Source: a virus. Taken from it: a stretch of DNA of 52,088 bases. The translations under genes were made by a program, and so were the position numbers. Shown here piece after piece: positions 4,857 to 44,951 of the stretch (its first letter is position 1; every line of letters starts with the position of its first letter). The notes beneath the pieces are model-generated. The model did not search any database and was not told the DNA's origin. It saw only the letters and a program-made list of their open reading frames with translations. The DNA is taken from positions 1 through 52,088 of IMG/VR virus record IMGVR_UViG_3300035156_000020. One strand, written 5' to 3'.

Positions 4857-4940
4857 GTGCTAACAGCACATTCATTCTAATTAACGCTAGTTAGAAGTTT
4901 GAAGTTTTATTATTTGAGCTAAAAGCTCTATTAATACTCT
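4857..4940 (+). promoter_or_regulatory. AT-rich conserved intergenic element, copy A. Function unknown: promoter, operator or origin-like.
   Basis: Hairpin gtgctaacagcac (4857-4869), TAGTTAG (4888-4894), TTTGAAG (4898-4904), 11-nt AT spacer, hairpin gagctaaaagctc (4916-4928), then atactct. The same architecture is at 44843-44951. Confidence 0.6.
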
Positions 4941-4983: not shown

Positions 4984-6471
4984 ATGCCTTTTAATGTAGG
5001 CGATAAGGTGCGTGTTATCCCCGGTGCAGCAGGGCCAGTTACCGGGCAGTACATCGGCATGACCCTCACGGTGGAGCGTGTAAGTGACTTCGGGAACATC
5101 AAGCTCCAGGAGATCGTGGGGGGTGGTTACTACGGCGCTCACAAGTTTGAGCTTATTCCTCAACCTGCTGTTGTCAAGGTTGGTGATTGGGTCGAATGCA
5201 TTGATGCGGCAGACAGCCTCACCTTGCGCATTGGTCGTCAGTACAAGGTGGAAGCTGTGTACCCTAGCGGATCGTATAAGCTGGAGGGCTTCGGCACTCG
5301 CTATCATCCGTCCCGCTTCAAGGCTGTTCCTGCGCCTAAGGCTGTGGCTGTTGCCGATGAATTCCCCTTCGACCCTGCTCTGTGGTATCCACAGGAAGGT
5401 GACAAGGTGTATGTGGTGGGTAAGTGCCCTAAAAACCACTATCCGGGGGGCATGGATAAGTATGTGAATGACGGAAAGCTGTACAAAGTCTATTCCGTGT
5501 ACGAGCCGCTTATCTACCTGAGCCATGCTAATGGCGACTCGTATTCCTGGGATAAGAGCGTCTTGCGTCCTGAATGGGCAGGCAAGAAAGCACAGCCCAA
5601 GCCTGCAACCTTGGCCGTACCGGATGGGCCTGTGGCCCCGTATGTGCCACCTGATGTGCCTGCTGAGCCAAACAGCACCCTCCGTGAAGACCTGTTCAAG
5701 CGTATTCCCGGTGGTGGCCTGTGTGACTTCGCCTTTGAAGGCAAGACCGGCATGCAAGACTTCCAGACAGCAGCCCCGTGCCATGCTGCCCTGTCCCGCC
5801 CTAACGTGGGTGCTGAGGTGGTGGCAATGGCGTATTGCCTCCGTAGTGATGTCAAGCGTTATGGGGGTGCTGACATCAAAGCGTACAAACGCTACATGGA
5901 CTACATCTTCAATCGCTCCCCTTGGGCACATGCATTCCTCACCAAGGATGTGAACGAAGCCATGGAGAAGGACATCCTCATGAACGTGGAAGTCAATCGC
6001 TTCGTCATGGCTGGTGCTTGCTTGGCTGTCCGTATGGCACACGAATACAGCAATCGCCCTACCGCCTTCGTCTACTTCGTGGACAAGGGCATTGGTGAGC
6101 ATGCGGCATGGGTATTGTGCTGTGCTCTCACCGTCCGTGGTAATAACTTCTCCCGTGCTGGCATGGGTGGCGGTCATGACCTGATTGACCATCATCGTGA
6201 CATGGCTGAACTGGTGAAGTTCTTCCAGGTGGGCTATCACACAGCACAGGGGACTGACCCCAACCCCTACCGACTGGCACATGGGGGCTATCGTATTGCC
6301 GATCCTGTGGCGAAGTATACGAGCAACGCTCTACATAGCCTCCGTGGCTGGCTGGATGCCAACATGAAGGCCACTGTAACTGGCGAAGGCTGGAACAAGA
6401 AATCCGCCATCACCGAAGAAGCAGTATTAACCGCTGCTGCAACCCTCAACAAACTCATTACCGGAGCGTAA
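4984..6471 (+). CDS. Cassette gene 1: 495-aa protein. It has three tandem SH3/KOW-like beta-barrel repeats plus a C-terminal domain of about 270 aa with unknown function.
   Basis: AGGAG SD. Repeats begin VGDKVRVI, VGDWVECI and EGDKVYVV and end FELIP, RFKAV and VLRPEW. Confidence 0.85.
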   Translation: MPFNVGDKVRVIPGAAGPVTGQYIGMTLTVERVSDFGNIKLQEIVGGGYYGAHKFELIPQPAVVKVGDWVECIDAADSLTLRIGRQYKVEAVYPSGSYKLEGFGTRYHPSRFKAVPAPKAVAVADEFPFDPALWYPQEGDKVYVVGKCPKNHYPGGMDKYVNDGKLYKVYSVYEPLIYLSHANGDSYSWDKSVLRPEWAGKKAQPKPATLAVPDGPVAPYVPPDVPAEPNSTLREDLFKRIPGGGLCDFAFEGKTGMQDFQTAAPCHAALSRPNVGAEVVAMAYCLRSDVKRYGGADIKAYKRYMDYIFNRSPWAHAFLTKDVNEAMEKDILMNVEVNRFVMAGACLAVRMAHEYSNRPTAFVYFVDKGIGEHAAWVLCCALTVRGNNFSRAGMGGGHDLIDHHRDMAELVKFFQVGYHTAQGTDPNPYRLAHGGYRIADPVAKYTSNALHSLRGWLDANMKATVTGEGWNKKSAITEEAVLTAAATLNKLITGA

Positions 6472-6472
6472 C

Positions 6473-7087
6473 ATGAACGTCCTCATCATCAATGGCGGCA
6501 GCGACTATCGCAAGCTGTTTGAATCCCTCGGCCACACGATCGTGGCTAACGTAGAAGATGCTCAACTGGCTGTCTTCACTGGCGGCGCCGACGTTTCCCC
6601 CAAGCTGTACGGGGCTGAGAAGCATCCGTTCACTGGTGTGGATGCACGCCGTGACATCATGGAAAAGACGCTCTACGAGGCTCTGCTGGCTCGTAAAGTG
6701 CCAATGGTGGGCATCTGCCGTGGTGCTCAATTCCTTAATGTCATGTCCGGTGGTGCGATGTACCAGCACGTAGAAAGCCATACCCGTGCCCACTACATCA
6801 TCGACCAGGTTACGGGGGAAACGGTGTATGTGTCGTCTACCCATCACCAGATGATGAAGCCATTCGGCATCTTCCACCTCATTGCTACCAGCAACAACAA
6901 CGGCAATCGTGAATGGTTTGAGGGCAGCGTATTCAAGCGTGATGTGGCCGATCAAGACATCGAAGTGGTGTTCTACCCCAACACCAAATGCCTGTGCTTC
7001 CAGCCCCATCCTGAATTCGATGGTGCGGAATACGAAGGCATGAAAGCCTACTTCCGTTCGCTGCTCAACCGTTATCTGGAGGTGTAA
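6473..7087 (+). CDS. Cassette gene 2: class I glutamine amidotransferase fold, peptidase C26 / gamma-glutamyl hydrolase-like (PuuD-like).
   Basis: Nucleophile elbow VGICRGAQFLNV and the downstream SSTHHQMM motif typical of the C26 family. Confidence 0.8.
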   Translation: MNVLIINGGSDYRKLFESLGHTIVANVEDAQLAVFTGGADVSPKLYGAEKHPFTGVDARRDIMEKTLYEALLARKVPMVGICRGAQFLNVMSGGAMYQHVESHTRAHYIIDQVTGETVYVSSTHHQMMKPFGIFHLIATSNNNGNREWFEGSVFKRDVADQDIEVVFYPNTKCLCFQPHPEFDGAEYEGMKAYFRSLLNRYLEV

Positions 7088-7089
7088 TC

Positions 7090-7461
7090 ATGACTCTTGA
7101 CGAGTTTTGGACAGCTACCGGGATTGGCCGTTGGGACATGCGTAACAACGACGACCACCTCCCGTGTTTCGCTAACCGTTATTACGTGAATGGGCGTGTA
7201 AACACCCCCGAACTCATCACGGCATACATCGACCTCGCAAAGCAAACTTGCACTAACGATGTCATCGTGTTCAGCGTGACGGAGAAAGATGAATGCTGGG
7301 ATGTGTGGAAGCAGTACGCCAAGGACAACAAGAGCGTGTTCAAGGTGGTGCAAGGTGGTTCCATTCATGGTGTGTATCTGTGCCGGATGTACATCTACAC
7401 CAAGCCGAAGGAAGAACGTAAGTTCCATGAGAATAACATCGGCAAGTACCGCGCTCGATAA
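7090..7461 (+). CDS. Cassette gene 3: hypothetical protein, 123 aa.
   Basis: Track ORF. It starts 3 nt after the previous stop. Confidence 0.7.
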   Translation: MTLDEFWTATGIGRWDMRNNDDHLPCFANRYYVNGRVNTPELITAYIDLAKQTCTNDVIVFSVTEKDECWDVWKQYAKDNKSVFKVVQGGSIHGVYLCRMYIYTKPKEERKFHENNIGKYRAR

Positions 7462-7510
7462 ATAACAGGTGGCTTAGGCCGCTATCATTAAACATTAAAC
7501 AAGGATTGAT

Positions 7511-8869
7511 ATGTGCGGTTTGGTTGGCATTGCAGGTGATTTGAACAACGTTCACGAGAAGGTGCTTAAAACCCTGCTCGTCCTCGATTCCCTCCGTGGT
7601 GAGGATTCGACTGGTGTTGCCTTCGTTAGCAAGTTCATGGATGAAGTGACGGTTGCCAAGTCGTTGGGTGACCCGTTCAACCTGTTCAACGATGGCAAGT
7701 TTCACAAGGCCCAACAGCGTCAGAATAAGGTGATGCTCGGCCACAACCGCTACGCTACCTCCGGTGGTGTCAACAAGGCGGGTGCCCATCCCTTCGACTA
7801 CGATACGCTGGTAGGTGCCCACAATGGCACTCTCGGCGCTCGTTATCGTCTGGATGATGACCGTGATTTCAAGGTGGACAGCCAGGCGCTCTATCACAAC
7901 ATCGAAAAGAACGGTGTTAAGGAAACCATCCGTCGCCTTGGTGGTCAAGGCAATGCATGGAGCTTGGTGTGGTGGGACAAGATTGAAAAGACCTTGAACT
8001 TCCTCCGCAATCAGGAACGTCCGATGCATATGTGCTCATCGGAAGATGGCAAGGCACTGTTTTGGGCATCGGAAGCTTGGATGTTGGATGTGGCCTTGGC
8101 TCGTCACAGCATCAAGCACAACGAAATCTTCCAGACCGCTGTAGACACTCACCTGAGCGTTTACATCAACAACAAGGGCGAGCTTGGCAAGCCTAAGGTT
8201 GTCGAAGTGAAGGCAGACCCCGTTGTTGTGCCGGTTGTGCAGATGTACCCACATGCCAAGCCTAAGCACATCCCGAAACCCCAACAACAGCAAAGCAATG
8301 TTGTTGTCCTGACCAAGGATGCACAGACCCCCGGTGAGGTGGGGCAGGCAAAAAAGTACGAAGCCGTAAATCCAAAAGGATCAGCATCAAACACCTCCTA
8401 TCTGTCAGCCACAATTGACCGCACCTTTGAAATCCTGTGCGAGAAGCGTGATGCTAACGGTGGCCGGTATCTGAGCCTGTTCGATGCGAACGAACCATAC
8501 ATTGACATTCGCCTCTATCCATGCAAGCAAGATGAAGTCTTGTTTCAATTGGAAGGCTCGGACATTCAAGGGCGTGTTACGAGCTTTGACAGCACGGATG
8601 GCGGCGCGCTGCGTCCCTACTACAAGGTGAGTCCTTGGACTGTCAAGTATGACGCCACCCTTGCCGAAGCAAACATTCCTGATGTCGTAATGGATCATCT
8701 TGGCCGTTTGGTTACGGCTAAGGAATGGAATAAGAATTACATTGCTTGCGCTTGGTGCAGCAGTGGTTTGAATCATCTGGAAGACAATCGCTTTACCGCT
8801 GGTGGTGATTGCCTTTGCCCTGCATGTGCAGCAGATGAAAAAGTAACTGAGAACGTCACCCTAATCTAA
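7511..8869 (+). CDS. Cassette gene 4: Ntn-type (class II) glutamine amidotransferase domain, fused to an unknown domain of about 220 aa with a terminal Cys4 zinc ribbon.
   Basis: Starts MCGLVGIAG (Cys directly after the initiator Met), then GHNRYATSG and GAHNGTL. The C-terminus has CAWCSS...CLCPAC. Confidence 0.85.
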   Translation: MCGLVGIAGDLNNVHEKVLKTLLVLDSLRGEDSTGVAFVSKFMDEVTVAKSLGDPFNLFNDGKFHKAQQRQNKVMLGHNRYATSGGVNKAGAHPFDYDTLVGAHNGTLGARYRLDDDRDFKVDSQALYHNIEKNGVKETIRRLGGQGNAWSLVWWDKIEKTLNFLRNQERPMHMCSSEDGKALFWASEAWMLDVALARHSIKHNEIFQTAVDTHLSVYINNKGELGKPKVVEVKADPVVVPVVQMYPHAKPKHIPKPQQQQSNVVVLTKDAQTPGEVGQAKKYEAVNPKGSASNTSYLSATIDRTFEILCEKRDANGGRYLSLFDANEPYIDIRLYPCKQDEVLFQLEGSDIQGRVTSFDSTDGGALRPYYKVSPWTVKYDATLAEANIPDVVMDHLGRLVTAKEWNKNYIACAWCSSGLNHLEDNRFTAGGDCLCPACAADEKVTENVTLI

Positions 8870-8880
8870 CGGAGTTTTAA

Positions 8881-9681
8881 ATGAGCAAACAGCAAATCCT
8901 GGTCGGCTGCGACCCTGAAGTTTTCGTCAAGAAGAATGGCATCTTCCAATCGGCCTATGGCCTGATTAAGGGGGACAAGGCCAACCCTCAACCTGTGGAA
9001 CGTGGTGCTGTCCAAGTGGATGGTATGGCTCTGGAATTCAATATCAACCCGGCTGCAACCGAGGCTGAATTTGTCCTGAGCGTCCAAACCGTGTTCGATA
9101 CCATGTGCAAGATGGTGCCGGGTTATGAAGTTGTTGCCGTGCCGGTGGCTGACTTCGATGCTGACTACCTGAAAGCCCAACCAAAAGAAGCATTGGAACT
9201 TGGTTGTGACCCCGATTATAACGCATGGACTTCCACTGTCAACCCCCGTCCTGATGGTGACCGTCCTATGCGTACTGCTTCGGGGCATGTCCATGTGGGC
9301 TGGACGAATGGCGAAGAGATTGGCAACCTCGATCATCAAAGCCGTTGCAACATGCTCATTCAGCAGCTTGACTTCTACTTGGGTCTGCCAAGCCTGATGT
9401 ACGACACGGATGCTCGTCGCCGTGAGATGTATGGCCGTGCGGGTGCATGCCGCTACAAGAGCTACGGTGTGGAATATCGCACCCTGTCGAATGCATGGCT
9501 CACCAGCAAGGAACGTATGGCATGGGTGTTCCGTGCTACCCAGGAAGCTGTTGCTCAGGCAATGGCAGGCAACCTGCTCGTGGAGAAGTTTGGTGACATC
9601 CAAGACATCATCAATACCTCCGATGTCAAGGGTGCCAAGCGCATCATCAAGGCTGCAAAGCTGGAGGTGTGTGGTGCTTGA
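8881..9681 (+). CDS. Cassette gene 5: glutamine-synthetase-fold COOH-NH2 ligase (the phage phiEco32-like COOH-NH2_lig family).
   Basis: N-terminal LVGCDPEVFV, plus MALEFNI and SGHVHVGW motifs recalled for this family. Confidence 0.75.
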   Translation: MSKQQILVGCDPEVFVKKNGIFQSAYGLIKGDKANPQPVERGAVQVDGMALEFNINPAATEAEFVLSVQTVFDTMCKMVPGYEVVAVPVADFDADYLKAQPKEALELGCDPDYNAWTSTVNPRPDGDRPMRTASGHVHVGWTNGEEIGNLDHQSRCNMLIQQLDFYLGLPSLMYDTDARRREMYGRAGACRYKSYGVEYRTLSNAWLTSKERMAWVFRATQEAVAQAMAGNLLVEKFGDIQDIINTSDVKGAKRIIKAAKLEVCGA

Positions 9682-9802
9682 GAAGTTTGTTAGCTGGTCA
9701 CTGGTCACCTTCGGGATCGTAGTGCTGGGGGCGTGTACGGTATGGGTTTGCGCCAACCTTGTTGACAGTATCTTTTCCCTTCCTTATTGGAGTGCTTGCT
9801 AA
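9674..9802 (+). CDS. Possible 42-aa membrane micro-protein (GTG start).
   Basis: GGAGG (9663-9667) lies 6 nt upstream of the GTG. Hydrophobic stretch SWSLVTFGIVVLGACTVWVCANLV. It exactly fills the gap between the two flanking genes. Confidence 0.35.
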   Translation: MLEKFVSWSLVTFGIVVLGACTVWVCANLVDSIFSLPYWSAC

Positions 9803-10432
9803 ATGCCATTAGAAGTTCCTGTAGACGACCTGCGCCGTGACTTCGTAGGTTGTGTGGTGATGTTCAAGAACAAGCCCGTGTACGTCCTCCATGTGTCTCT
9901 GGATGGCACTGTGATGTATCGGGATATGTTCAGCCAGCGTGACGAGATGGCCCCCTTCACCCTGAAGGAATTCGGCAAGCCTGTTCCTCGTATTGGCTTT
10001 GTCAACATCAACAACTCGGTGGTGTACGTTAGCCGTTCCCCTGTCCGTAAGTATTACATGGGGGTGAGCTTGCAGAACATCGAATGCAAACTGATTATGG
10101 GCGTGGACTACCCGAACGGTAGCCAAGCAACTAAGCAGCGCATTCAAACGCTGTGCATTCCCGAAATGGCAGACGCTATCACGAACAAATACCCATCCTT
10201 GGCTGATGCAGCCGAGAAGGTGAAGAAGTTCGGTGGTGCTTGTGCATTCGACAAGCAATTCGCAATCAGTGCTAACAAGGACATCTTCTACAAAGGTGAG
10301 CCTGTTGGCCTTTGTGCCCTCACTGCTAAAGGTACTGCTGATATTCAGTGGAACGAAGGCAAACAATATCTTTCAATTCTTTTGGACGGAAACCATGAAA
10401 AAACTGTACGAGATTTTAGGCCAGCGGCTTAA
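9803..10432 (+). CDS. Cassette gene 6: hypothetical protein, 209 aa.
   Basis: Track ORF. The ATG immediately follows the TAA of the micro-ORF. It overlaps the next gene by 38 nt. Confidence 0.7.
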   Translation: MPLEVPVDDLRRDFVGCVVMFKNKPVYVLHVSLDGTVMYRDMFSQRDEMAPFTLKEFGKPVPRIGFVNINNSVVYVSRSPVRKYYMGVSLQNIECKLIMGVDYPNGSQATKQRIQTLCIPEMADAITNKYPSLADAAEKVKKFGGACAFDKQFAISANKDIFYKGEPVGLCALTAKGTADIQWNEGKQYLSILLDGNHEKTVRDFRPAA

Positions 10433-11441
10433 CAAGGGTGATGTTGGCGTTGAGATTGAAGTCGAAGGTCAACGGTTGCCGGATGACGTTGACGCTCGTT
10501 GGAACGCTACCGTGGATGGCTCCCTTCGTGGTGAGAATCGGGAGTATGTCATGCGTAAGCCGTTGCCTCTTGCCGAGGTTAAGGATGCCCTGACCTGTCT
10601 CGCACAGAACCTGAAGGACAACAAGGCTAAGCCTGACTTCTCCTTCCGCACTTCGGTGCATGTCCACATCAACTGCCAGGAACTGACGTACAACCAATAC
10701 CTCAACTTCCTGTACACCTACTTCCTGCTGGAAGAACCCCTGATGACGTTCTGTGGTCGTGAACGTAAGGGCAATCGCTTCTGCCTCCGTCTGCAAGATG
10801 CAGAGGGCATGTTGGAAACGTTCAACCGGATGTTCCAGTTCCAGGAAGAGGATGGTTTTGCTCACATCCCGCCTAACAAGGTGCGCTATTCGGCTATGAA
10901 CATCGAAGCCACTACCAAGTACGGTAGCTTGGAGTTCCGTGGCATGAAGGGCAACATGGATGTGGACTACATCAACGATTGGGTGATGGCAATCAGCTAC
11001 CTGCGTGCCTTCGCTCAGTCGGTGGAAGACCCCACGAAGGTGTATGACCTGTACGCCGAACTGGAAGCACAGGGCTTCATGGAGCATGTTCTGAAAGAGC
11101 TTGCACCGAAGTTCTACTATGCCCGTGCCAGCCGTGATGTGCAGCGTAGCTTCTCCCTGTCGCTTGACCTGCCTTTCCGCTTCGGTGAACAGGCAGCGAT
11201 TCGTAAGGCTGCTCAGAAGCGTGTAGCCCCTCGTGCTCCAAAGGCGATGCGTGTCCCCGATGTCATTGAGCCTGTGCAGATGCCTGACCCGCAAGTGGTT
11301 CACGCTGGAATCATGCGTAACAACCCTGCTGCTGACATCCTTGCACAGTTCAACGACCCGTTTGCTCGTCGTCTGCGTGCCGATGCTGCCCCTCGTGCTG
11401 TTCCTGTCCGTCCCCGTGCAATCATCCGTGATGAGTTCTAA
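10395..11441 (+). CDS. Cassette gene 7: second, different glutamine-synthetase-fold amidoligase (Amidoligase_2-like).
   Basis: Internal ATG of track ORF 10233-11441. Motifs GVEIEVEG, DGSLRGENREYVM, SVHVHIN and GSLEFRGMKG. Confidence 0.8.
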   Translation: MKKLYEILGQRLNKGDVGVEIEVEGQRLPDDVDARWNATVDGSLRGENREYVMRKPLPLAEVKDALTCLAQNLKDNKAKPDFSFRTSVHVHINCQELTYNQYLNFLYTYFLLEEPLMTFCGRERKGNRFCLRLQDAEGMLETFNRMFQFQEEDGFAHIPPNKVRYSAMNIEATTKYGSLEFRGMKGNMDVDYINDWVMAISYLRAFAQSVEDPTKVYDLYAELEAQGFMEHVLKELAPKFYYARASRDVQRSFSLSLDLPFRFGEQAAIRKAAQKRVAPRAPKAMRVPDVIEPVQMPDPQVVHAGIMRNNPAADILAQFNDPFARRLRADAAPRAVPVRPRAIIRDEF

Positions 11442-11444
11442 TCC

Positions 11445-12194
11445 ATGAAAATCTACCCATACAAACAAGGGAGTAAGAGTGCTGCTGCTTTGGCTGCTGC
11501 ACTGAATGTCAAGCAATTGAAGCATGAGGGCAAGCCTATCAAGGTGAAGGGTGTCCTCATCAATTGGGGGGCATCGGTTATTGTCCCTCGTGTTGTCCTT
11601 GACGGAGGTGTTCAGGTGCTTAACGTACCTGGTGCCATTGCCAAGGCAAGTAACAAGCTGGCTTCCTTTAAAGCCCTCACTGAGGCAAAGGTGAGTGTCC
11701 CTGAGTGGACTGAAAGCAAAGATGTGGCTAAGGCTGCAATCGAAGCTGGCTTTGCTGTGGTGTGTCGCACCAAGTTGAATGGTCATAGCGGGGATGGCAT
11801 TGTTATTGCTGAAACCCTTGACCAACTCGTTGATGCTCCCCTCTACACCAACTACATCAAGAAGAAAGAGGAATACCGTATCCACGTATTCCAAGGGGAA
11901 GCTTTCTTCGTACAGCGTAAAGCTCGTAAGATGGAAGTGCCTGACGAACAAGTGAACTGGAAGGTTCGCAATCTGGCCGGTGGTTTTATCTTCGCTAACA
12001 AAGATGTGGAGGTTGCAGATGACGCACGAGTTCAAAGCATTGCTGCTGTGGGTGCTCTCTCCCTTGATTTCGGCGCTGTTGATGTCATTCTTGGCTCAGA
12101 TGGCAAGTTCTATGTCCTAGAAATCAACACGGCCTGTGGTCTTGAAGGAACCACCTTGGAGAAATATGTCCAGCAGTTCCAGAAATTCCAGTAA
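11445..12194 (+). CDS. Cassette gene 8: ATP-grasp ligase (RimK-like size).
   Basis: EEYRIHVFQGEAF, NLAGGFIF and DFGAVDVILGSDGKFYVLEINTACGL (the E-x-N metal-binding motif). Confidence 0.85.
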   Translation: MKIYPYKQGSKSAAALAAALNVKQLKHEGKPIKVKGVLINWGASVIVPRVVLDGGVQVLNVPGAIAKASNKLASFKALTEAKVSVPEWTESKDVAKAAIEAGFAVVCRTKLNGHSGDGIVIAETLDQLVDAPLYTNYIKKKEEYRIHVFQGEAFFVQRKARKMEVPDEQVNWKVRNLAGGFIFANKDVEVADDARVQSIAAVGALSLDFGAVDVILGSDGKFYVLEINTACGLEGTTLEKYVQQFQKFQ

Positions 12195-12221: not shown

Positions 12222-13862
12222 TTGCCAGGTATTTGCGTTGAGAAGATTGGAAGCATTCAGATTTTCTTGAAGGATGATGGGACGTATGACGGTTATGACT
12301 TCGCTAACAATAAATACATCCCTGACCCCTACAAGGATAAGCCAAAGGATTATCGGCCTGTAAAGCTTCGCAAGAGTAAGGAACAAATTGCAGCAGAGCT
12401 TGCGGAAATTGAGGACTTCCAGACGGTTGCCCTCCCTGACCGTAAGCTTAAGAAGGAGAGTCTTGAATACTTCGGTGTCAAGATTGGCCTGTCAGAACAG
12501 GACGGCACAACCCCCGTAACTCACTACTATCCCTATACCCGTGAGGGTGAGGTGGTGGGCTACAAGGTTAGGCTGATTGAAAACAAACGTATGTGGTCGG
12601 TGGGGGATCAAGGCAATGTCGATCTATTCGGGTGGGACAAGGCTATTGCGACAGGTGCGAAGAGACTTTACATCACTGAAGGTGAATGTGACGCCATCGC
12701 ACTGTATCAGATTTTTAAGGACATCAATCGCGGTAGTGCTTACGCTGATTTTAATCCTGCCATTGTTAGCTTGCCTCACGGTAGTGGGTCTGCTGCTCGT
12801 GACATCGTTCGGTGCAGTGAATCTATCCGCCGGACGTTCAAAGAAGTTGTTCTAGTCTTTGATGCTGACGAACCTGGTCAGAAAGCTGTACAGGAGGTTA
12901 TGGTTGTCCTCCCTGACGCAATGGTTGCCACCCTCCCCGCTAAGGATGCCAATGAATGCCTGATTGAAGGGCGTAGCAAGGCATGTCACTCTGCTTGTCA
13001 GTTCAATGCGAGCAAGCCCAAGAACAGCCGTATCGTGTCTGGAAGCTCTTTGCACGAGAAGGCTAAGGAAGCCCCTAGCTACGGGCTATCATGGCCTTGG
13101 AAGGGCATTACAGAGGCTTCTAGGGGCATTCGCTTCGGGGAAACAATCTACTTAGGTGCTGCTCAGAAAATGGGTAAGTCTGAGGTGGTTAATGCCCTAG
13201 GTGCTCACTTCATCAAGGAACACGGTTTGAAGGTGTTCATGGCGAAGCCTGAGGAAAACAATGCCAAGACGTACAAGCTTGTTGCAGGTAAGTTGTGTGG
13301 CAAGTTCTTCCATGATCCTAAGAAGCCTTTCGACATGGATGCGTATGAAGAGGCTGGCCGTGTAATCGCGGACAACCTATTCTTGGTAAACCTCTATCAA
13401 CACCTAGGCTGGGAAACTCTTAAAGCTGATATTCGTGAAGCTGCTACAGAGCATGGATGTAAAGTGATTATGATTGATCCGATTACCAACCTCACTAACG
13501 GGATGAGTGCTGCTGATGCAAACGTTAAGCTACAGGAGATTGCTCAGGAACTTAGTGCAATGGCGCTCGATCTTGATGTTGTTATTTTCATCTTCTGCCA
13601 CTTACGCAACCCTGACGGAGGTTTGCCACATGAGCGTGGAGGTGAAGTTCTTTCTAGTCAGTTTGCTGGCTCCCGTGCCATGGCTCGTAGCTGTAATTAC
13701 ATGCTCGGACTGGAAGGCAACCGTGATCCCAACCTCTCCCCCGAAGAACGAAACATCCGGCAGTTAGTATTGCTGGAGGATCGTGAATACGGTGAGGTGG
13801 GACGCTGGCCTATGTATTGGAACCAAGAGAATGGTTTGTTCCAGGAGCTTGCTAAGCATTAA
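12222..13862 (+). CDS. Bifunctional primase-helicase (T7 gp4-like: TOPRIM plus DnaB/RecA-type helicase). No N-terminal Cys4 finger seen.
   Basis: TTG start 5 nt after AAGGAG. TOPRIM motifs ITEGECDAIAL and VFDADEPGQKA. Walker A GAAQKMGKSE. Confidence 0.9.
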   Translation: MPGICVEKIGSIQIFLKDDGTYDGYDFANNKYIPDPYKDKPKDYRPVKLRKSKEQIAAELAEIEDFQTVALPDRKLKKESLEYFGVKIGLSEQDGTTPVTHYYPYTREGEVVGYKVRLIENKRMWSVGDQGNVDLFGWDKAIATGAKRLYITEGECDAIALYQIFKDINRGSAYADFNPAIVSLPHGSGSAARDIVRCSESIRRTFKEVVLVFDADEPGQKAVQEVMVVLPDAMVATLPAKDANECLIEGRSKACHSACQFNASKPKNSRIVSGSSLHEKAKEAPSYGLSWPWKGITEASRGIRFGETIYLGAAQKMGKSEVVNALGAHFIKEHGLKVFMAKPEENNAKTYKLVAGKLCGKFFHDPKKPFDMDAYEEAGRVIADNLFLVNLYQHLGWETLKADIREAATEHGCKVIMIDPITNLTNGMSAADANVKLQEIAQELSAMALDLDVVIFIFCHLRNPDGGLPHERGGEVLSSQFAGSRAMARSCNYMLGLEGNRDPNLSPEERNIRQLVLLEDREYGEVGRWPMYWNQENGLFQELAKH

Positions 13863-13921: not shown

Positions 13922-14461
13922 ATGGCACAAGCTAAAGATGTAACGGGTTTAGTATTTGGACGACTCACCGCACGGAATAAGGAGGGCAAGGATAAGTTTG
14001 GAATCGCCCTCTGGAAATGTCGGTGTGAGTGTGGTAATGAAACAGTGGTGAGGCTTTGTGCCCTGTCCTGTGGATACACTCGATCCTGTGGTTGTCTAAA
14101 TAACGAAACGCGGAAGGTCAGTATGAGGGGCAACACTCACGCAAAGGTTCACAGCCTCTCAAAACACCCCCTGTATCCCACCTGGTCAACAATGAAACAA
14201 CGTTGTATCAACCCCAATCAGGGCAAGTATGCCTTGTATGGCGGTCGTGGTATTAAGGTGTGTGATGAGTGGATGAATTCTTTCCCAAAGTTTCTTGAAG
14301 ATATGGGGGAACGTCCTGAGGGATGCACCCTAAATCGGATAGATAACGACGGGAACTACTGTAAGGATAACTGCGAGTGGGCAACTCATTCAGACCAAAA
14401 CCGTAACCGCCGAGCGTATAAGCGCAATACTGGCTTGTTTAACGAACTACAGAGGACTTAA
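13922..14461 (+). CDS. Free-standing AP2/HNH-associated DNA-binding protein (homing-endonuclease-like).
   Basis: YGGRGIKVCDEW...FLEDMGERP...LNRIDNDGNYCKDNCEWAT signature plus an N-terminal Cys cluster CRCECG...CGC. Confidence 0.7.
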   Translation: MAQAKDVTGLVFGRLTARNKEGKDKFGIALWKCRCECGNETVVRLCALSCGYTRSCGCLNNETRKVSMRGNTHAKVHSLSKHPLYPTWSTMKQRCINPNQGKYALYGGRGIKVCDEWMNSFPKFLEDMGERPEGCTLNRIDNDGNYCKDNCEWATHSDQNRNRRAYKRNTGLFNELQRT

Positions 14462-20703: not shown

Positions 20704-21393
20704 TTGAAAATTGCCCCAATTGAAGTGAGTTTGATTGACCACATGGGGACTGACCTCTCCGTGGTCAATGCAGCACGAGTATCCTTCGATAAGGAAAGTG
20801 ATTGGACTACGTTAGAAATTCACCAAGGCGATAAGCTCGTTGGTGGTGTCCAGGTCTTGAATGAAGCAGACCGTAGGCTTATATCCTACCTTGCCAAGCA
20901 TAAGCACTTCTCCCCATTCAATCACGCCTTCATGACGTTCCGTGTTAAGGCTCCCATCTTTGTAGCCCGACAGCTTGTTAAACACAAGTTCATGCCGTGG
21001 AATGAAGTGAGTAGGCGTTATGTGGACAGTGAGCCAGAGTTCTACATTGCACCTATGTACCGTGCTAAGGCTGCTAACGTGAAGCAAGGTAGCGCAGACG
21101 TTGACTCTGGGTACGACCGTCATGCTGCTATTGAGCACAGCCAGAGGTGTCTTGACGAGTACAACGCACGTCTTGCGCATGGTGTGTGCCCTGAACAGGC
21201 TCGTGATGCACTGCCGATCAATACGCACACTGAGTGGATTTGGAGTGGAACACTCGGAGCGTTTGCCGATATGTTGAAGCTTCGTCTTGACCCACATACC
21301 CAAGCTGAAAGCCGTATCGTAGCTGAACAGATTTATGCAATTGCAGCAGACCTCTTCCCTGTTAGCCTTCCTTCCCTTATCGAGAACAAATAA
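20704..21393 (+). CDS. thyX: Flavin-dependent thymidylate synthase ThyX-like, with a divergent signature.
   Basis: TTG start. KHFSPFNH replaces GHxSxxEH. KHKFMPWNEVSRRY replaces the RHR(X)7S..RY signature. Confidence 0.8.
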   Translation: MKIAPIEVSLIDHMGTDLSVVNAARVSFDKESDWTTLEIHQGDKLVGGVQVLNEADRRLISYLAKHKHFSPFNHAFMTFRVKAPIFVARQLVKHKFMPWNEVSRRYVDSEPEFYIAPMYRAKAANVKQGSADVDSGYDRHAAIEHSQRCLDEYNARLAHGVCPEQARDALPINTHTEWIWSGTLGAFADMLKLRLDPHTQAESRIVAEQIYAIAADLFPVSLPSLIENK

Positions 21394-22158
21394 TTGAAAA
21401 TCCTCTACATCCCTGACACGCAAGCCAAGCCTGGTAATGACTTCAAGTTCCTGACCCGAATCGGCCAATATATCTGTGAGAAACAGCCTGACGTAATTGT
21501 TCATGGTGGTGACTTGGCAGACATGCCCTCCCTGTCGTCTTATGACGAGGGTAAGAAGTCCTTTGAAGGGCGACGCTATACGAACGATGTACAGGCTGCA
21601 ATTGAGGCTCAGACAGCCCTCTTTCAACCCCTAGCCCTACTCCAGGCGCGACAAACTCAGAACCGTAAGAAGGTTTACCACCCTCGCACCATCATCACCG
21701 TTGGTAACCATGAGAACCGAATCAATCGTGCAATCAATGACGATGCCAAGCTTGAAGGACTCATCTCTCAGAAAGACCTCTGCTATGAATCGTTCTTCCA
21801 CGAAGTTTATAACTTCCTTGATGTTGTGGTTGTCGAAGGTGTCGCTTTTAGTCACTACTTCGTTACCGGCACTGCTGGCCGTCCTGCTAGTTCTGCTGCT
21901 GCCCAAATGAATAAGAAGCATATGTCCTGTATCGCAGGCCATCAACAAGGCTTGCAGATTGCTACGGCACACCGGGCAGACGGTAAGCGCCTCACCAGTG
22001 TTATTGCAGGTAGCTGCTATGAACATAATGAGGATTACATGGGGCCACAGGGCAATAAGCACTGGCGTGGTGTCCTGATGCTGCATGATGTTAAGGATGG
22101 TGAGTTTGACCTGATGCCTGTTAGCCTTGATTATCTGGAGAAGAAATATGCAGGTTAA
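21394..22158 (+). CDS. Calcineurin-like metallophosphoesterase.
   Basis: IPDTQ, VHGGDLAD and VGNHENR motifs. TTG start directly after the thyX stop. Confidence 0.8.
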   Translation: MKILYIPDTQAKPGNDFKFLTRIGQYICEKQPDVIVHGGDLADMPSLSSYDEGKKSFEGRRYTNDVQAAIEAQTALFQPLALLQARQTQNRKKVYHPRTIITVGNHENRINRAINDDAKLEGLISQKDLCYESFFHEVYNFLDVVVVEGVAFSHYFVTGTAGRPASSAAAQMNKKHMSCIAGHQQGLQIATAHRADGKRLTSVIAGSCYEHNEDYMGPQGNKHWRGVLMLHDVKDGEFDLMPVSLDYLEKKYAG

Positions 22159-22579
22159 TGTTAAGAAGCTCCACCCTGACGCCATCCTCCCTACTTATGG
22201 GACGGATGGTGCGGGAGCGTTTGACATCTATGCTCTTTACCCTAAAAACGATGACCCTGTAGACTCATTTGTTTTCAGTACAGGTCTTTCTTTTGAAATT
22301 CCAAAGGGATACGTGATGATGATTTACTCACGTAGCGGTCACGGTTTTAATGACGATATTCGACTTGCCAACTGCGTAGGCGTGATTGACAGCGATTACC
22401 GTGGGGAACTGAAGGTTAAACTAACCTGTGACGCTGGTAACGGAATCATTGACTATGACCATGCTGACCGTATCGCCCAAGCAATGATTATCCCCATCCC
22501 CCGTATCGCTTTCAACGAAGTGGACGAACTCTCAACTACTACCCGTGGCGCTGGTGGCTTCGGTAGCACTGGCAGTTGA
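22148..22579 (+). CDS. dut: dUTPase (trimeric type).
   Basis: GAGAFDIY, SRSGHG, GVIDSDYRGEL and RGAGGFGSTG. ATG with GGAG upstream. Confidence 0.9.
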   Translation: MQVNVKKLHPDAILPTYGTDGAGAFDIYALYPKNDDPVDSFVFSTGLSFEIPKGYVMMIYSRSGHGFNDDIRLANCVGVIDSDYRGELKVKLTCDAGNGIIDYDHADRIAQAMIIPIPRIAFNEVDELSTTTRGAGGFGSTGS

Positions 22580-22739
22580 CTTACCAATTCATTAGAAACT
22601 CCTGTCGTTGTCACCCCGAAACCTGCCCCCACTGGAGGTATGTGATTGTTGATGAAAAGGGGGAGACAATTAAGGGGTTTGACACTGCAACTGACGCACT
22701 TCATGCCTGTATCTTTATGAACGCAAACAAAGGAAATAC

Positions 22740-44842: not shown

Positions 44843-44951
44843 CTGCTGTTAGCAGAACTAATAAAACTTCTAACTTAACTCTATTGTTTATTTAGTAGTT
44901 AGTTTGAAGAGTTATTCATAGAGCTAACAGCTCATATATTTCATATATACT
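44843..44951. promoter_or_regulatory. AT-rich conserved element, copy B: two inverted copies of the element at 4857-4940.
   Basis: Minus-oriented: agttagaagttttattagtt plus ctgctaacagcag (44879 down to 44843). Plus-oriented: TAGTTAG (44896), TTTGAAG (44903), 11-nt spacer, gagctaacagctc (44921-44933), then atactct. Confidence 0.6.

Follow-up and report, generated by a model that had tools for sequence, protein, structure and literature searches.

A conserved phage cassette of amidoligase, glutamine amidotransferase and ATP-grasp genes in a Zobellviridae-like podophage and its possible role in building glutamyl adducts

Organisation of the cassette and its upstream region

The window, by which is meant the whole stretch of 52,088 bases that was analysed, derives from a Zobellviridae-like podophage that is kin to CVT22 and PA11. 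Eight co-oriented and tightly packed ORFs on the + strand occupy positions 4984-12194 (Table 1). A sequence-only reading of this DNA had proposed these genes and put their share of the genome at 14 percent; all eight are present where it placed them, and together they take up 7,211 of the 52,088 bases, or 13.8 percent. The cassette encodes three carboxylate-amine ligases from three families (phiEco32-type COOH-NH2, Amidoligase_2 and RimK-clade ATP-grasp) and two enzymes that hydrolyse glutamine or a gamma-glutamyl amide, the Ntn GATase-II and the Peptidase_C26 enzyme, C26. Three tight gene pairs can be recognised, the ORF1 C-domain with C26, GATase-II with the COOH-NH2 ligase, and ORF6 with Amidoligase_2, and these are followed by the ATP-grasp gene, which invariably lies just upstream of replication genes. 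The open frame of Amidoligase_2 begins at 10233, upstream of the internal ATG. No small protein in the window ends in a conserved Glu or Gln, and no substrate, tag or carrier protein for the cassette was found.

Table 1. Positions of the cassette genes and flanking features in the window
Feature	Position	Strand	Length	Description
33-nt repeated motif	4896..4928	+	33 nt	AGTTTGAAGnnTTATTnnnnGAGCTAAnAGCTC; in the 129-nt AT-rich gap before the cassette
ORF1	4984..6471	+	495 aa	KOW/SH3 repeats and C-domain
Peptidase_C26 enzyme	6473..7087	+	204 aa	
ORF3	7090..7461	+	123 aa	lineage-specific accessory
GATase-II (Ntn)	7511..8869	+	452 aa	
phiEco32-type COOH-NH2 ligase	8881..9681	+	266 aa	
ORF6	9803..10432	+	209 aa	tandem SH3/Tudor/KOW-like beta-barrels
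Amidoligase_2	10395..11441	+	348 aa	from internal ATG
RimK-clade ATP-grasp ligase	11445..12194	+	249 aa	
Primase-helicase	12222-13862			directly after the cassette

An AT-rich conserved element had been proposed directly upstream of the cassette (4857-4940). The stretch is indeed AT-rich (71 percent A+T), but the suggested conservation did not hold, as none was detected among related phages for either the stretch or the 33-nt motif within it. A second exact-pattern copy of this motif lies at 44901-44933, and no such copy appeared in 100 shuffles. A hairpin with a T-run follows the previous ORF, 5' of the motif. The motif probably acts as a signal of promoter or operator type for the operon.

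The enzymes and their partner proteins

All five enzymes score above the Pfam curated cut-offs, their PHROG matches are much stronger, ranging from 1e-53 to 1e-90, and their active sites are intact. The catalytic residues that the sequence-only reading expected, the Cys after the initiator Met, the C26 Cys-His and the ATP-grasp E-x-N, are present and invariant across lineages, and the ligase, amidotransferase and hydrolase assignments made there can be retained. In an NCBIfam profile search none of the enzymes reached an equivalog-level cut-off, so that substrate specificity is not transferable from their relatives.

The COOH-NH2 ligase (PF14395, 1.4e-9, 38 bits vs a cut-off of 25; phrog_3815, 1e-90) belongs to the glutamate-cysteine-ligase-2 class of carboxylate-amine ligases with a glutamine-synthetase fold, and no solved structure is related to it by sequence. 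Asp11-Pro-Glu13, Glu52, Arg131, His136, His138, Glu198 and Arg200 are invariant over five lineages. Amidoligase_2 (PF12224, 4e-8, 33.9 bits vs 22; phrog_7469, 2e-66) is a carboxylate-amine ligase that resembles glutamine synthetase and ends in a disordered tail; its residues Glu20, Glu22, Glu24, Asp41, Ser43, Arg45, Glu50, His89, His91, Arg124, Glu180 and Arg182 are invariant. The ATP-grasp enzyme (Pfam RimK, 1.7e-6, 28.2 bits vs 21; phrog_2599, 5e-84) has invariant Asp213 and Glu226-x-Asn228, and its closest solved relatives are the RimK-type alpha-L-glutamate ligases 7qyr, 5zct and 4iwx; because it scores 53.8 bits against the NCBIfam rimK_fam cut-off of 143, this assignment holds at clade level only. 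Among its relatives, the RimK, LysX and MvdC/D-type ligases act on proteins or peptides, whereas the substrate of MptN is a cofactor.

C26 (PF07722, 5e-23, 82.4 bits vs 20.5; phrog_7218, 2e-53) has the Peptidase_C26 / class-I glutamine amidotransferase fold with invariant Cys82, His179 and Glu181. Its closest solved relatives are Lin1909, PuuD and the P. aeruginosa "probable glutamine amidotransferase" 7d4r, which is presumably the polyamine-catabolism enzyme SpuA. PuuD and another relative, gamma-glutamyl-CDP-amidate hydrolase, are gamma-glutamyl-amine hydrolases, and C26 itself may either hydrolyse gamma-glutamyl amides or serve as a glutaminase subunit. GATase-II (GATase_6, 3e-13, 50.4 bits vs 27; phrog_4736/18128, about 1e-75) begins with MCGLVGIAG, which aligns to MCGIVGIAG of PurF, with GlmS also aligned. 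After an Ntn domain at about residues 1-235 come a linker of low complexity, a small beta-rich domain and, at the C-terminus, a CxxC...CxxC zinc ribbon; Arg29, Asn105-Gly106, Asp123 and the zinc-ribbon Cys413/Cys439 are invariant. The C-terminal half has no Pfam match and no synthase or acceptor domain was found in the protein, so that its role as an ammonia donor can only be inferred, and the protein might just as well be a gamma-glutamyl amidohydrolase.

Of the three proteins to which no function had been assigned, ORF1 and ORF6 were found to belong to conserved families, and ORF3 was not. ORF1 has no Pfam match and its AF2 model is poor (pLDDT 57). Its N-terminus carries three KOW/SH3 (Mib-Herc2-like) beta-barrel repeats, which match structures of Spt5 KOW and Mib/HERC2, and then a Pro-rich linker. 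The C-terminal domain of about 270 aa is mainly helical and represents an uncharacterised family of 558 representative clusters, with Cys266, Ser312, Arg350, Glu354 and His398 invariant in an alignment of 94 sequences. The family lies directly upstream of C26 at 63 of 65 related loci, and C26 is still the next gene downstream of homologues with only 22-24 percent identity. The C-domain is a candidate for an enzyme that is paired with C26.

ORF6, a phage-specific protein, was modelled well (AF2, pLDDT 87), with a small C-terminal domain after the barrels that bears the invariant motif GACAFDKQFA. The model has no significant PDB match, and its confident BFVD matches are solely to uncharacterised phage proteins. 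All 78 relatives have ORF6, and without exception the COOH-NH2 ligase precedes it and Amidoligase_2, whose start it overlaps, comes after it; here the overlap is 38 nt. Comparison with TL gp16, Paul gp89 and Privateer gp91 by hhalign gave 75 percent probability (E 2.6e-5), and the family HMM also matches at this position in L098 and L099, whose cassettes are minimal. ORF6 and Amidoligase_2 are translationally coupled, and ORF6 is likely to be a partner or substrate-recognition subunit of Amidoligase_2. ORF3 has no Pfam, PHROG or NCBIfam match; among 74 related loci just 6 have it, as does L094, and it is a lineage-specific accessory rather than a conserved cassette member.

Conservation and distribution among phages

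Gene order was compared in 80 related IMG/VR contigs, with denominators that differ from gene to gene. Seven of the eight genes have a fixed order, namely ORF1 C-domain, C26, GATase-II, COOH-NH2 ligase, ORF6, Amidoligase_2 and ATP-grasp, leading into the primase-helicase. Gaps or overlaps of 15 nt or less are found at the junctions ORF1 C-domain to C26 (51/66), COOH-NH2 ligase to ORF6 (66/76), ORF6 to Amidoligase_2 (65/75) and Amidoligase_2 to ATP-grasp (43/59). GATase-II is present in 75/75 relatives and Amidoligase_2 in 74/74. For the four core enzymes, the phage records number 313 (COOH-NH2 ligase), 316 (ATP-grasp), 320 and 326 (Amidoligase_2) and have matching genus profiles, and the genes are thus co-conserved, as had been expected, rather than scattered. 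At least 584 IMG/VR loci contain the COOH-NH2 ligase.

The wider core consists of the COOH-NH2 ligase, an ORF6-type protein, Amidoligase_2, GATase-II and ATP-grasp, and is found in about 315 of 50,697 phage records. All five genes are present in Bruynoghevirus, Kuravirus, Grimontviridae, phiM6 and phage contigs binned into MAGs; in a crAss-like phage the cassette enzymes are rearranged and no separate ORF6-type gene was detected. The core is usually accompanied by C26 and/or gamma-glutamyl cyclotransferase (GGCT), two non-homologous cleavers of gamma-glutamyl bonds. Zobellviridae and crAss carry C26, Bruynoghevirus and Kuravirus carry GGCT, and phiM6 has both; L066 has GGCT and lacks C26. C26 is present in 70/74 relatives, yet in only 67 phage records overall, and is an accessory gene outside the universal core. 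A genome-wide scan gave just four matches, each on a phage-sized contig binned into a MAG, and the system hardly occurs outside phages. Among the listed or binned hosts of core carriers are Pseudomonadota, Bacteroidota (Porphyromonas) and a Saccharibacteria MAG.

This kind of cassette is already known, as comparative genomics drew attention to it in 2009, and hundreds of phages carry it. The neighbourhoods mentioned in the sequence-only reading, in phiEco32-like and PaP3/LUZ24-like phages, were borne out: PF14395 takes its name from phiEco32, and LUZ24/TL, PaP3-type and Kuravirus genomes contain the gene set. The searchable literature reports no biochemical product, in agreement with that reading. 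New details are the architecture of ORF1 and its linkage to C26, the tandem barrels of ORF6 and its coupling, and a GATase-II that has a zinc ribbon and lacks a synthase domain.

Possible substrates of the pathway

The proposal that these genes form an amide-bond-forming enzyme set was supported in every computational test; as it allowed for a metabolite, a protein or DNA, such support says little about the actual product. We tentatively favour, with a probability of roughly 0.4, a process that assembles and trims, step by step, a glutamyl or gamma-glutamyl adduct on a macromolecule. The cassette would be a single co-transcribed operon, delayed-early or middle, encoding a multi-step, ATP-dependent pathway. 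Acting one after another, the ligases might couple glutamate or a comparable amino acid to a substrate via gamma- and alpha-carboxyl linkages, and ammonia from glutamine might turn one or more carboxylates into carboxamides. C26, or GGCT in other lineages, would cleave off a gamma-glutamyl group that could serve as a protecting or activating group or as a target of editing. A macromolecule or carrier-bound intermediate seems more likely than a free metabolite, because KOW/SH3/Tudor barrels or a zinc ribbon are found in three non-ligase components and the RimK clade acts mostly on protein or peptide C-termini. Phage proteins often contain SH3-like barrels, which are no proof that the target is a protein. 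The leading substrate candidate would be a protein of the host or the phage, and the purpose may be host takeover or evasion of defence during replication.

It is rather unlikely that the product is instead a free gamma-glutamyl metabolite, made or remodelled to reprogramme host metabolism or to poison competitors; such a compound might be a peptide resembling glutathione, a gamma-glutamyl-polyamine or an antimetabolite in the form of an amidated dipeptide. The combination of a GCS2-type ligase with an ATP-grasp enzyme and GGCT parallels the gamma-glutamyl cycle as established for GshA, GshB and GGCT, dapdiamide-type dipeptide synthesis likewise combines a ligase and an amidotransferase with an ATP-grasp enzyme, and the likeness of C26 to PuuD and 7d4r points the same way. 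However, the binding modules of the three cassette proteins are unusual for metabolite enzymes, transporter, decarboxylase and PLP enzyme are all absent, and the lack of equivalog-level likeness to any metabolic enzyme and the near restriction to phages also argue against it. It counts against the favoured macromolecular target that this set of ligase, ATP-grasp enzyme and GGCT would also suit glutathione- or polyamine-type small-molecule gamma-glutamyl chemistry.

Modification of DNA or nucleotides, in which a base or dNTP precursor would receive an amino-acid or amide group that shields the genome from restriction, appears unlikely. In lineages with such annotation nearby, the cassette adjoins genes for primase-helicase, DNA polymerase or nucleotide metabolism, and the second-best NCBIfam model for C26 is a nucleotide-linked gamma-glutamyl amide hydrolase, albeit at 35.9 bits, far below the cut-off of 250. 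The window, however, lacks enzymes that make an attachment point on a base and has no hydroxymethylase; its thymidylate synthase is ThyX, not a ThyA-type hydroxymethylase, and dUTPase and RNR are canonical. The + strand ORFs include no P-loop DNA kinase, amino-acid:DNA transferase, dioxygenase or DpdA, no transglycosylase for DNA modification was found in the phage, and the large minus-strand ORFs are all structural. Moreover, the DNAs of LUZ24, PaP3 and phiEco32 are cut by ordinary restriction enzymes. In viral metagenomes, amidoligase and GATase genes without assigned function co-occur with thymidine-hypermodification genes (PMC8989533, PMC13229309), which favours a DNA target, but the BASEL authors ascribe the restriction resistance of Kuravirus to a locus with dCTP deaminase and nucleotidyltransferase (PMC11990801). 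It counts against the favoured protein target that the fixed position beside replication genes and that resistance accord equally well or better with DNA or nucleotides as the target.

An alteration of cell-wall precursors, with changed peptidoglycan stem peptides excluding superinfecting phages, is credited in PMC10580990 to Iyer et al. 2009 as a proposal. The ATP-grasp enzyme has weak C-terminal similarity to D-Ala-D-Ala ligase. In the stem peptide there is a gamma-D-glutamyl bond, and there are carboxylates, which ligase/GATase pairs (MurT/GatD) amidate in other bacteria. We regard this explanation as very improbable, since inspection of the cassette proteins by eye revealed no Mur-ligase, membrane or secretion signals, the walls of Pseudomonadota, Porphyromonas and Saccharibacteria hosts should differ, and the carriers are lytic, with little time for exclusion.

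Layout and conservation of the cassette

All eight co-oriented ORFs that the sequence-only reading had described between the early genes and the primase-helicase gene were found where it had placed them, and together they take up about 14 percent of the genome (see table). The genes lie 1-50 nt apart, except for a 121-nt spacer 5' of ORF6 and a 38-nt overlap between ORF6 and the Amidoligase_2 gene (ORF7). The cassette is one operon beside the replication genes, and is built of three tight gene pairs and an ATP-grasp gene; this three-pair architecture, which is added here, offers concrete candidate complexes. The primase-helicase gene is followed by an HNH endonuclease gene and then by the genes of a sigma factor and family-A DNA polymerase, and the minus-strand half of the window holds the terminase, portal, capsid and tail genes. 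The nucleotide-supply block is canonical, and no sign of non-canonical nucleotide synthesis was seen in it.

Features of the window, with the number of phage records matched at the protein level and the presence of each gene at annotated IMG/VR loci with enough flanking sequence
Feature	Coordinates	Records (of 50,697)	Loci	Remark
33-nt motif, first copy	4896-4928			+ strand
ORF1	4984-6471		63/65	loci counted for the C-domain
C26	6473-7087	67	70/74	
ORF3	7090-7461		6/74	
GATase-II	7511-8869	320	75/75	
COOH-NH2 ligase	8881-9681	313		
Sigma-70-like site	9242-9215			minus strand
Spacer	9682-9802			non-coding, COOH-NH2 ligase to ORF6
ORF6	9803-10432		78/78	
Amidoligase_2 (ORF7)	10395-11441	326	74/74	
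ATP-grasp	11445-12194	316	73/73	
Primase-helicase	12222-13862		72/72	3' of cassette
HNH endonuclease	13922-14461			directly after the intact primase-helicase
Nucleotide-supply block	20704-24707			downstream of replication genes; ThyX, calcineurin-like metallophosphoesterase, dUTPase, ribonucleotide reductase
33-nt motif, second copy	44901-44933			+ strand

No close DNA relative of the window was found among GenBank phages. The proteins of the replication module and the cassette match those of Zobellviridae (Citrobacter phage CVT22, Pseudomonas phages of the PA11/TC6/O4 type, Klebsiella phage Asterion and oyster-metagenome phages), and identical copies of the ORF1 and ORF6 proteins occur on a record from a 52,102-bp metagenomic contig. 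The presence of the cassette in this phage is what is expected for Zobellviridae and would not surprise a specialist; the cassette is strongly conserved but of an already recognised kind, and the window contributes a new, divergent member.

The genes of the system are co-conserved and not scattered. In a protein-level search of 50,697 phage records the four core enzymes (COOH-NH2 ligase, ATP-grasp, GATase-II and Amidoligase_2) gave similar record counts and near-identical genus profiles (Pseudomonas about 120, Escherichia about 94, Vibrio 22, Proteus 8, Salmonella 7, Cronobacter 6), from which it follows that they travel together; C26 is found far less often. A COOH-NH2 ligase is encoded at no fewer than 584 loci in IMG/VR, and the best 80 of these, all Zobellviridae-like, were annotated with HMMs made from the collected families. 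Gene order across the 80 is almost constant, running from the ORF1 C-domain through C26, at some loci ORF3 and/or a second ATP-grasp, GATase-II and COOH-NH2 ligase to ORF6, Amidoligase_2, ATP-grasp, primase-helicase and sigma factor, with most junctions at most 15 nt long or overlapping. The Zobellviridae version can thereby be defined as a set of seven genes. The system is carried by about 0.6 percent of the phages sequenced and by no fewer than 584 contigs of IMG/VR, each of which devotes five to eight genes to it.

In other lineages, namely Bruynoghevirus (TL/LUZ24), Kuravirus (Paul/phiEco32) and Grimontviridae (Privateer, Vp_R1), the order is COOH-NH2 ligase, a protein of about 200 aa, Amidoligase_2, GATase-II and ATP-grasp. 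The cassette is rearranged in a crAss-like phage from the human gut, a version of it occurs in Sinorhizobium phage phiM6, and two phage-sized contigs binned in MAGs have a minimal cassette with C26 and no ORF1 C-domain. A single-protein scan for cellular homologues gave four loci only, all on phage-sized contigs in MAGs. The carriers include phages of E. coli (Kuravirus) and P. aeruginosa (Bruynoghevirus) as well as a phage of the human gut, and the Kuravirus and Bruynoghevirus groups are candidates for therapy. As an experimental handle, cultured carriers are no worse than the window.

A gamma-glutamyl cyclotransferase (GGCT) accompanies the core in Bruynoghevirus, Kuravirus and phiM6, and was seen by eye in about 9 of the 80 Zobellviridae-like contigs; a count at loci with enough upstream flank gave 6 of 58. 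One locus has GGCT and lacks C26. Strict mutual exclusivity of C26 and GGCT was rejected because phiM6 and several IMG/VR loci carry both.

Several local variations were observed. The junction occupied by the 121-nt spacer in the window is at most 15 nt long or overlapping in 66 of 76 relatives. The window has the terminal ATP-grasp copy only; about twenty Zobellviridae-like contigs (related loci including L011, L012, L015, L017, L018, L020-L028, L032, L043, L044, L051, L068 and L074) have a second, shorter paralogue between C26 and GATase-II, some of them then lacking the terminal copy, and at a few loci an ATP-grasp gene lies upstream of the ORF1-type gene. At seven loci (L046, L048, L052, L053, L066, L073, L087) the primase-helicase is divided between two ORFs of about 330 and 220-255 aa, some 200-1300 nt apart, which suggests an intron, intein or homing-endonuclease insertion. 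Finally, the record of Vibrio phage V07 (locus L010; MT135025, 349 kb, UNVERIFIED_ORG, 'Schizotequatrovirus') has a complete Zobellviridae-type cassette beside a terminase gene and looks like two phages assembled into one chimera.

The enzymes and their partner proteins

The ligase, amidotransferase and hydrolase assignments all hold, in that every enzyme call exceeds its curated Pfam cut-off and PHROG matches range from 1e-53 to 1e-90; the catalytic residues named in the sequence-only reading, i.e. the Cys after the initiator Met of GATase-II, the C26 Cys-His and the ATP-grasp Glu-x-Asn, are likewise present. The COOH-NH2 ligase scores 38 bits with PF14395 against a cut-off of 25 (phrog_3815, 1e-90) and has 39 invariant columns, among them Glu13, Glu52, Arg131, His136, His138, Glu198 and Arg200. 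In Amidoligase_2 (PF12224, 33.9 bits against 22) the invariant residues are Glu20/22/24, His89/91, Arg124, Glu180 and Arg182, and in both glutamine synthetase (GS)-fold ligases the sets of acidic, His and Arg residues are preserved in five lineages of phages. The ATP-grasp enzyme matches Pfam RimK (28.2 against 21), aligns with RimK 7qyr and has an invariant Mg-binding Asp213 and Glu226-x-Asn228. Its score with NCBIfam TIGR00768 is 53.8 bits, short of the family-level cut-off of 143.4, and it is thus a relative within the clade and not a RimK orthologue. None of the cassette enzymes reaches an NCBIfam equivalog cut-off.

C26 scores 82.4 bits with PF07722 (cut-off 20.5) and 28.3 with PF00117 (22.8), and its triad of Cys82 (GICRG), His179 and Glu181 (HPE) is invariant in representatives of five lineages, Cys82 aligning with the nucleophile motif of 3fij. 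It may be a gamma-glutamyl hydrolase or a glutaminase subunit; its best equivalogs lie far below their cut-offs (PuuD, 38 bits against 266; gamma-glutamyl-CDP-amidate hydrolase, 36 against 250). GATase-II begins MCGLVGIAG, with Cys directly after the initiator Met as in the PurF-like motif MCGxVGIAG with which it was aligned, and Arg29, Asn105-Gly106 (oxyanion hole) and Asp123 are invariant. A fused synthase or acceptor domain like those of PurF, GlmS, AsnB and GltB was not found, residues 236-452 or thereabouts having no Pfam match. Behind the Ntn domain lie a linker of low complexity, then a small domain rich in beta structure, and then a CxxC...CxxC zinc ribbon; the zinc-ribbon tail is not conserved, and the ribbon is duplicated in Kuravirus and Grimontviridae. 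A fusion (Rosetta-stone) search detected no Pfam domains in the C-terminal half of GATase-II or in long forms of the two GS-fold ligases and the ATP-grasp protein, and PADLOC gave no meaningful match to defence-system proteins.

Three of the proteins had been listed as having no assigned function, and they proved to be of different standing: ORF1 (through its C-domain) and ORF6 represent conserved families, while ORF3 is an accessory gene with homologues in the closest relatives only. ORF1 consists of three KOW/SH3 (Mib/HERC2-like) repeats, a proline-rich linker and a C-domain of about 270 aa. An exhaustive search yielded 558 representative clusters for the C-domain, which is always C-terminal; the N-terminal regions vary in length and are mostly SH3-like in members with a Pfam hit. 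Across 94 diverse members Cys266, Ser312, Arg350, Glu354 and His398 do not vary, a pattern that suggests an enzyme. It is new here that this domain is described as an uncharacterised family of large size, which is coupled to C26 and has what appears to be a Cys/Ser/Arg/Glu/His active site. No Pfam or PDB sequence match to the C-domain was found, and a fold search with the AF2 model (five-sequence alignment, pLDDT 57) returned KOW/SH3 matches for the N-terminal repeats only. C26 still follows immediately after homologues of 22-24 percent identity, so the two look like a functional pair. They may be a two-subunit amidotransferase, or they may be an enzyme and a hydrolase that processes its product.

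A link between the C-domain and the paired unknowns of about 300-400 aa in Bruynoghevirus, Kuravirus, Grimontviridae and crAss was considered and rejected, since searches with phmmer and hhalign, also with a profile of 94 sequences, gave it no support, with probabilities of at most 34 percent. A pattern PC[FH][GA] ... R-x-x-x-E is common to them by eye only and is unproven. The only confirmed homologues here are CVT22 gp67 (99.6 percent), T4S1 ORF56 (93 percent) and phiM6 gp80.

For ORF6, a confident predicted fold can now be given for a universal core component: the model (pLDDT 87) has tandem SH3/Tudor/KOW-like barrels and a small C-terminal domain with an invariant GACAFDKQFA motif. Fold matches were to uncharacterised phage proteins only. 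Against the PDB the best E was 0.06, and because the eIF5A/EF-P, Tudor and KOW matches had TM below 0.25 a transfer of function is not justified. ORF6 matches the protein at the same position in Bruynoghevirus, Kuravirus and Grimontviridae (hhalign, 75 percent probability, E 2.6e-5), and its family HMM also matches that position in the minimal cassettes of loci L098 and L099. The ORF6 stop overlaps the Amidoligase_2 start in the window and in most relatives, and in our reading ORF6 is a subunit that partners or targets Amidoligase_2, or possibly its substrate.

Relation to known systems and possible substrates

Iyer, Abhiman, Burroughs and Aravind reportedly described the phage amidoligase neighbourhood by comparative genomics in 2009, and 17 years have passed since the system was first noticed. 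The sequence-only reading had pointed to such neighbourhoods in phiEco32-like and PaP3/LUZ24-like phages, and the same set is indeed present in Bruynoghevirus TL/LUZ24 and Kuravirus phiEco32; Pfam PF14395 is named for it. Cassette genes are routinely annotated (PA11, TC6, CVT22, UFV-P2), and in literature searchable up to mid-2026 no experimental work on the product was found. The only functional statement found there is a cell-wall/superinfection proposal, which PMC10580990 ascribes to Iyer et al.

The window shares with the phiEco32/LUZ24-PaP3 neighbourhood a type 2 COOH-NH2 ligase, Amidoligase_2, GATase-II and ATP-grasp, co-located in the replication/early module upstream of the primase-helicase, and a protein of about 200 aa between the GS-fold ligases. 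It differs in that GATase-II precedes the ligases, C26 stands in place of GGCT, a single ORF1 (KOW/SH3 repeats and Cys/His C-domain) replaces two unknowns of about 300-400 aa, and the small RHH-like ORF after GATase-II is missing. The cassettes of cultured Zobellviridae (PA11, TC6, O4, CVT22, Asterion) have the same order and content, with sigma factor and DNA polymerase downstream, and their enzymes are 35-54 percent identical to those of the window (COOH-NH2 ligase 47-54 percent); unlike them, the window has ORF3, and the small ORFs that end in LENE in CVT22 are missing from it.

Three other systems are similar in part. In the butirosin (BtrJ/BtrG) and LysW-LysX pathways an ATP-grasp enzyme, RimK-type or other, forms a glutamyl amide on a protein-bound substrate and a GGCT or hydrolase later removes it. 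The likeness is no more than an analogy; the cassette has no decarboxylase or downstream tailoring enzymes, and no ORF or C-terminal motif in the window answers to a small protein that could serve as tag or carrier through a conserved Glu or Gln at its C terminus. Pupylation (PafA/Dop and Pup) also combines two carboxylate-amine ligases of GS/GCL fold with glutamine/glutamate amide chemistry, and protein tagging is among the roles predicted for such neighbourhoods, but the ligase families are different and the window has neither a small disordered Pup-like protein ending Gly-Gly-Gln/Glu nor a proteasome partner. Thymidine hypermodification clusters (Lee et al. 2021; T-dioxygenase clusters 2026) similarly have GATase and amidoligase genes in the replication module, whereas the window is without a dUMP hydroxymethylase/5mYOX, 5-HMUDK kinase or amino-acid:DNA transferase. 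Since the defining feature looked for in each case is absent, the cassette does not belong to the thymidine-hypermodification, pupylation or LysW-carrier systems.

As judged from conserved residues, the cassette encodes three ATP-dependent carboxylate-amine ligases and two glutamine/gamma-glutamyl-amide hydrolases with intact active sites. Amide bonds would be formed in succession, probably with glutamate, and glutamine-derived ammonia would serve for amidation. The involvement of glutamate is suggested by three considerations: members of the RimK clade attach Glu in alpha linkage, it is typically the Glu gamma-carboxylate that GS and GCL-fold ligases activate, and two non-homologous enzymes predicted to cleave gamma-glutamyl bonds, C26 and GGCT, have been recruited to the system. 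Three of the non-ligase components contain macromolecule-binding modules, and the RimK-clade relatives with known substrates act mostly on proteins or peptides (RimK, LysX, MvdC/D). For these reasons a protein or carrier-bound substrate is favoured, at a probability of roughly 0.4. MptN, another relative, acts on a cofactor. A rival reading with a free gamma-glutamyl metabolite is considered rather unlikely.

Modification of DNA or a nucleotide is doubtful. The constant position of the cassette beside replication genes would suit it, as would the restriction resistance of Kuravirus phages, reported to be unusual and to have no known mechanism (PMC11990801). Against this, the window has no enzyme that would make an attachment point on a base. 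Its thymidylate synthase is ThyX (PF02511, 5e-44) and not a hydroxymethylase, and neither a ThyA-type hydroxymethylase nor a TET/JBP dioxygenase, which could supply 5-hydroxymethylpyrimidine, was found in the window; a DNA or 5-HMUDK P-loop kinase, an amino-acid:DNA transferase (aGPT-Pplase) and a transglycosylase were likewise not found among the annotated ORFs, which take in only part of those below about 60 aa. This evidence against the standard pyrimidine hypermodification routes is also added here. The cell-wall idea ascribed to Iyer et al. is quite improbable.

There is also a more novel proposal, which taken as a whole has the odds well against it. The cassette could produce an undescribed covalent modification, a short and partly amidated glutamyl or gamma-glutamyl adduct on phage DNA or a key host or phage protein, with the ORF1 C-domain as a new class of Cys/His enzyme working with a C26 subunit and ORF6 as the targeting subunit; the modification would then explain why Kuravirus and other carriers broadly resist restriction or defence. 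Solving the cassette could bring to light new ligase chemistry, a new strategy against defence, or a modification of protein or DNA that is new.

Sequence signals in and around the cassette

The AT-rich element directly upstream, which had been taken for a conserved one, did not find support as such across phages. A 33-nt motif, AGTTTGAAGnnTTATTnnnnGAGCTAAnAGCTC, occurs in exactly two copies (0 expected in shuffles), one 5' of the cassette and the other in a 490-nt gap between a scaffold-like gene and the portal gene. Both adjoin GCTAACAGC/GCTGTTAGC hairpin arms. The motif was not found in the related loci; a role as phage-specific promoter or operator is possible.

In CVT22 (locus L001, 1805-11687) fifteen small ORFs of 63-118 aa, interleaved with the cassette genes or just upstream, end in ...[S/T]LENE, with one LENK and one LINE. 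The ending is encoded by near-identical DNA, TTGGAGAATGAA-TAA-(A)TG, which comprises a Shine-Dalgarno sequence and the next start codon, except that no start codon follows the copies in gp70 and gp48. Because the DNA string is mainly a Shine-Dalgarno sequence with a coupled start, and nothing similar is present in the window, the tails were rejected as carrier or tag proteins that would be a general feature of the system. The DNA might mark the boundaries of small-gene cassettes or be a signal for their recombination.

A 12/12 match to the sigma-70 consensus (TTGACA-16-TATAAT) lies within the COOH-NH2 ligase gene, antisense to the cassette. Relatives match only 5-10 of 12 at the homologous position, and conserved codons, those of D-Y-N and T-V-N, overlap with the hexamers. 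The perfect match is probably a coincidence, or it may be an antisense promoter.
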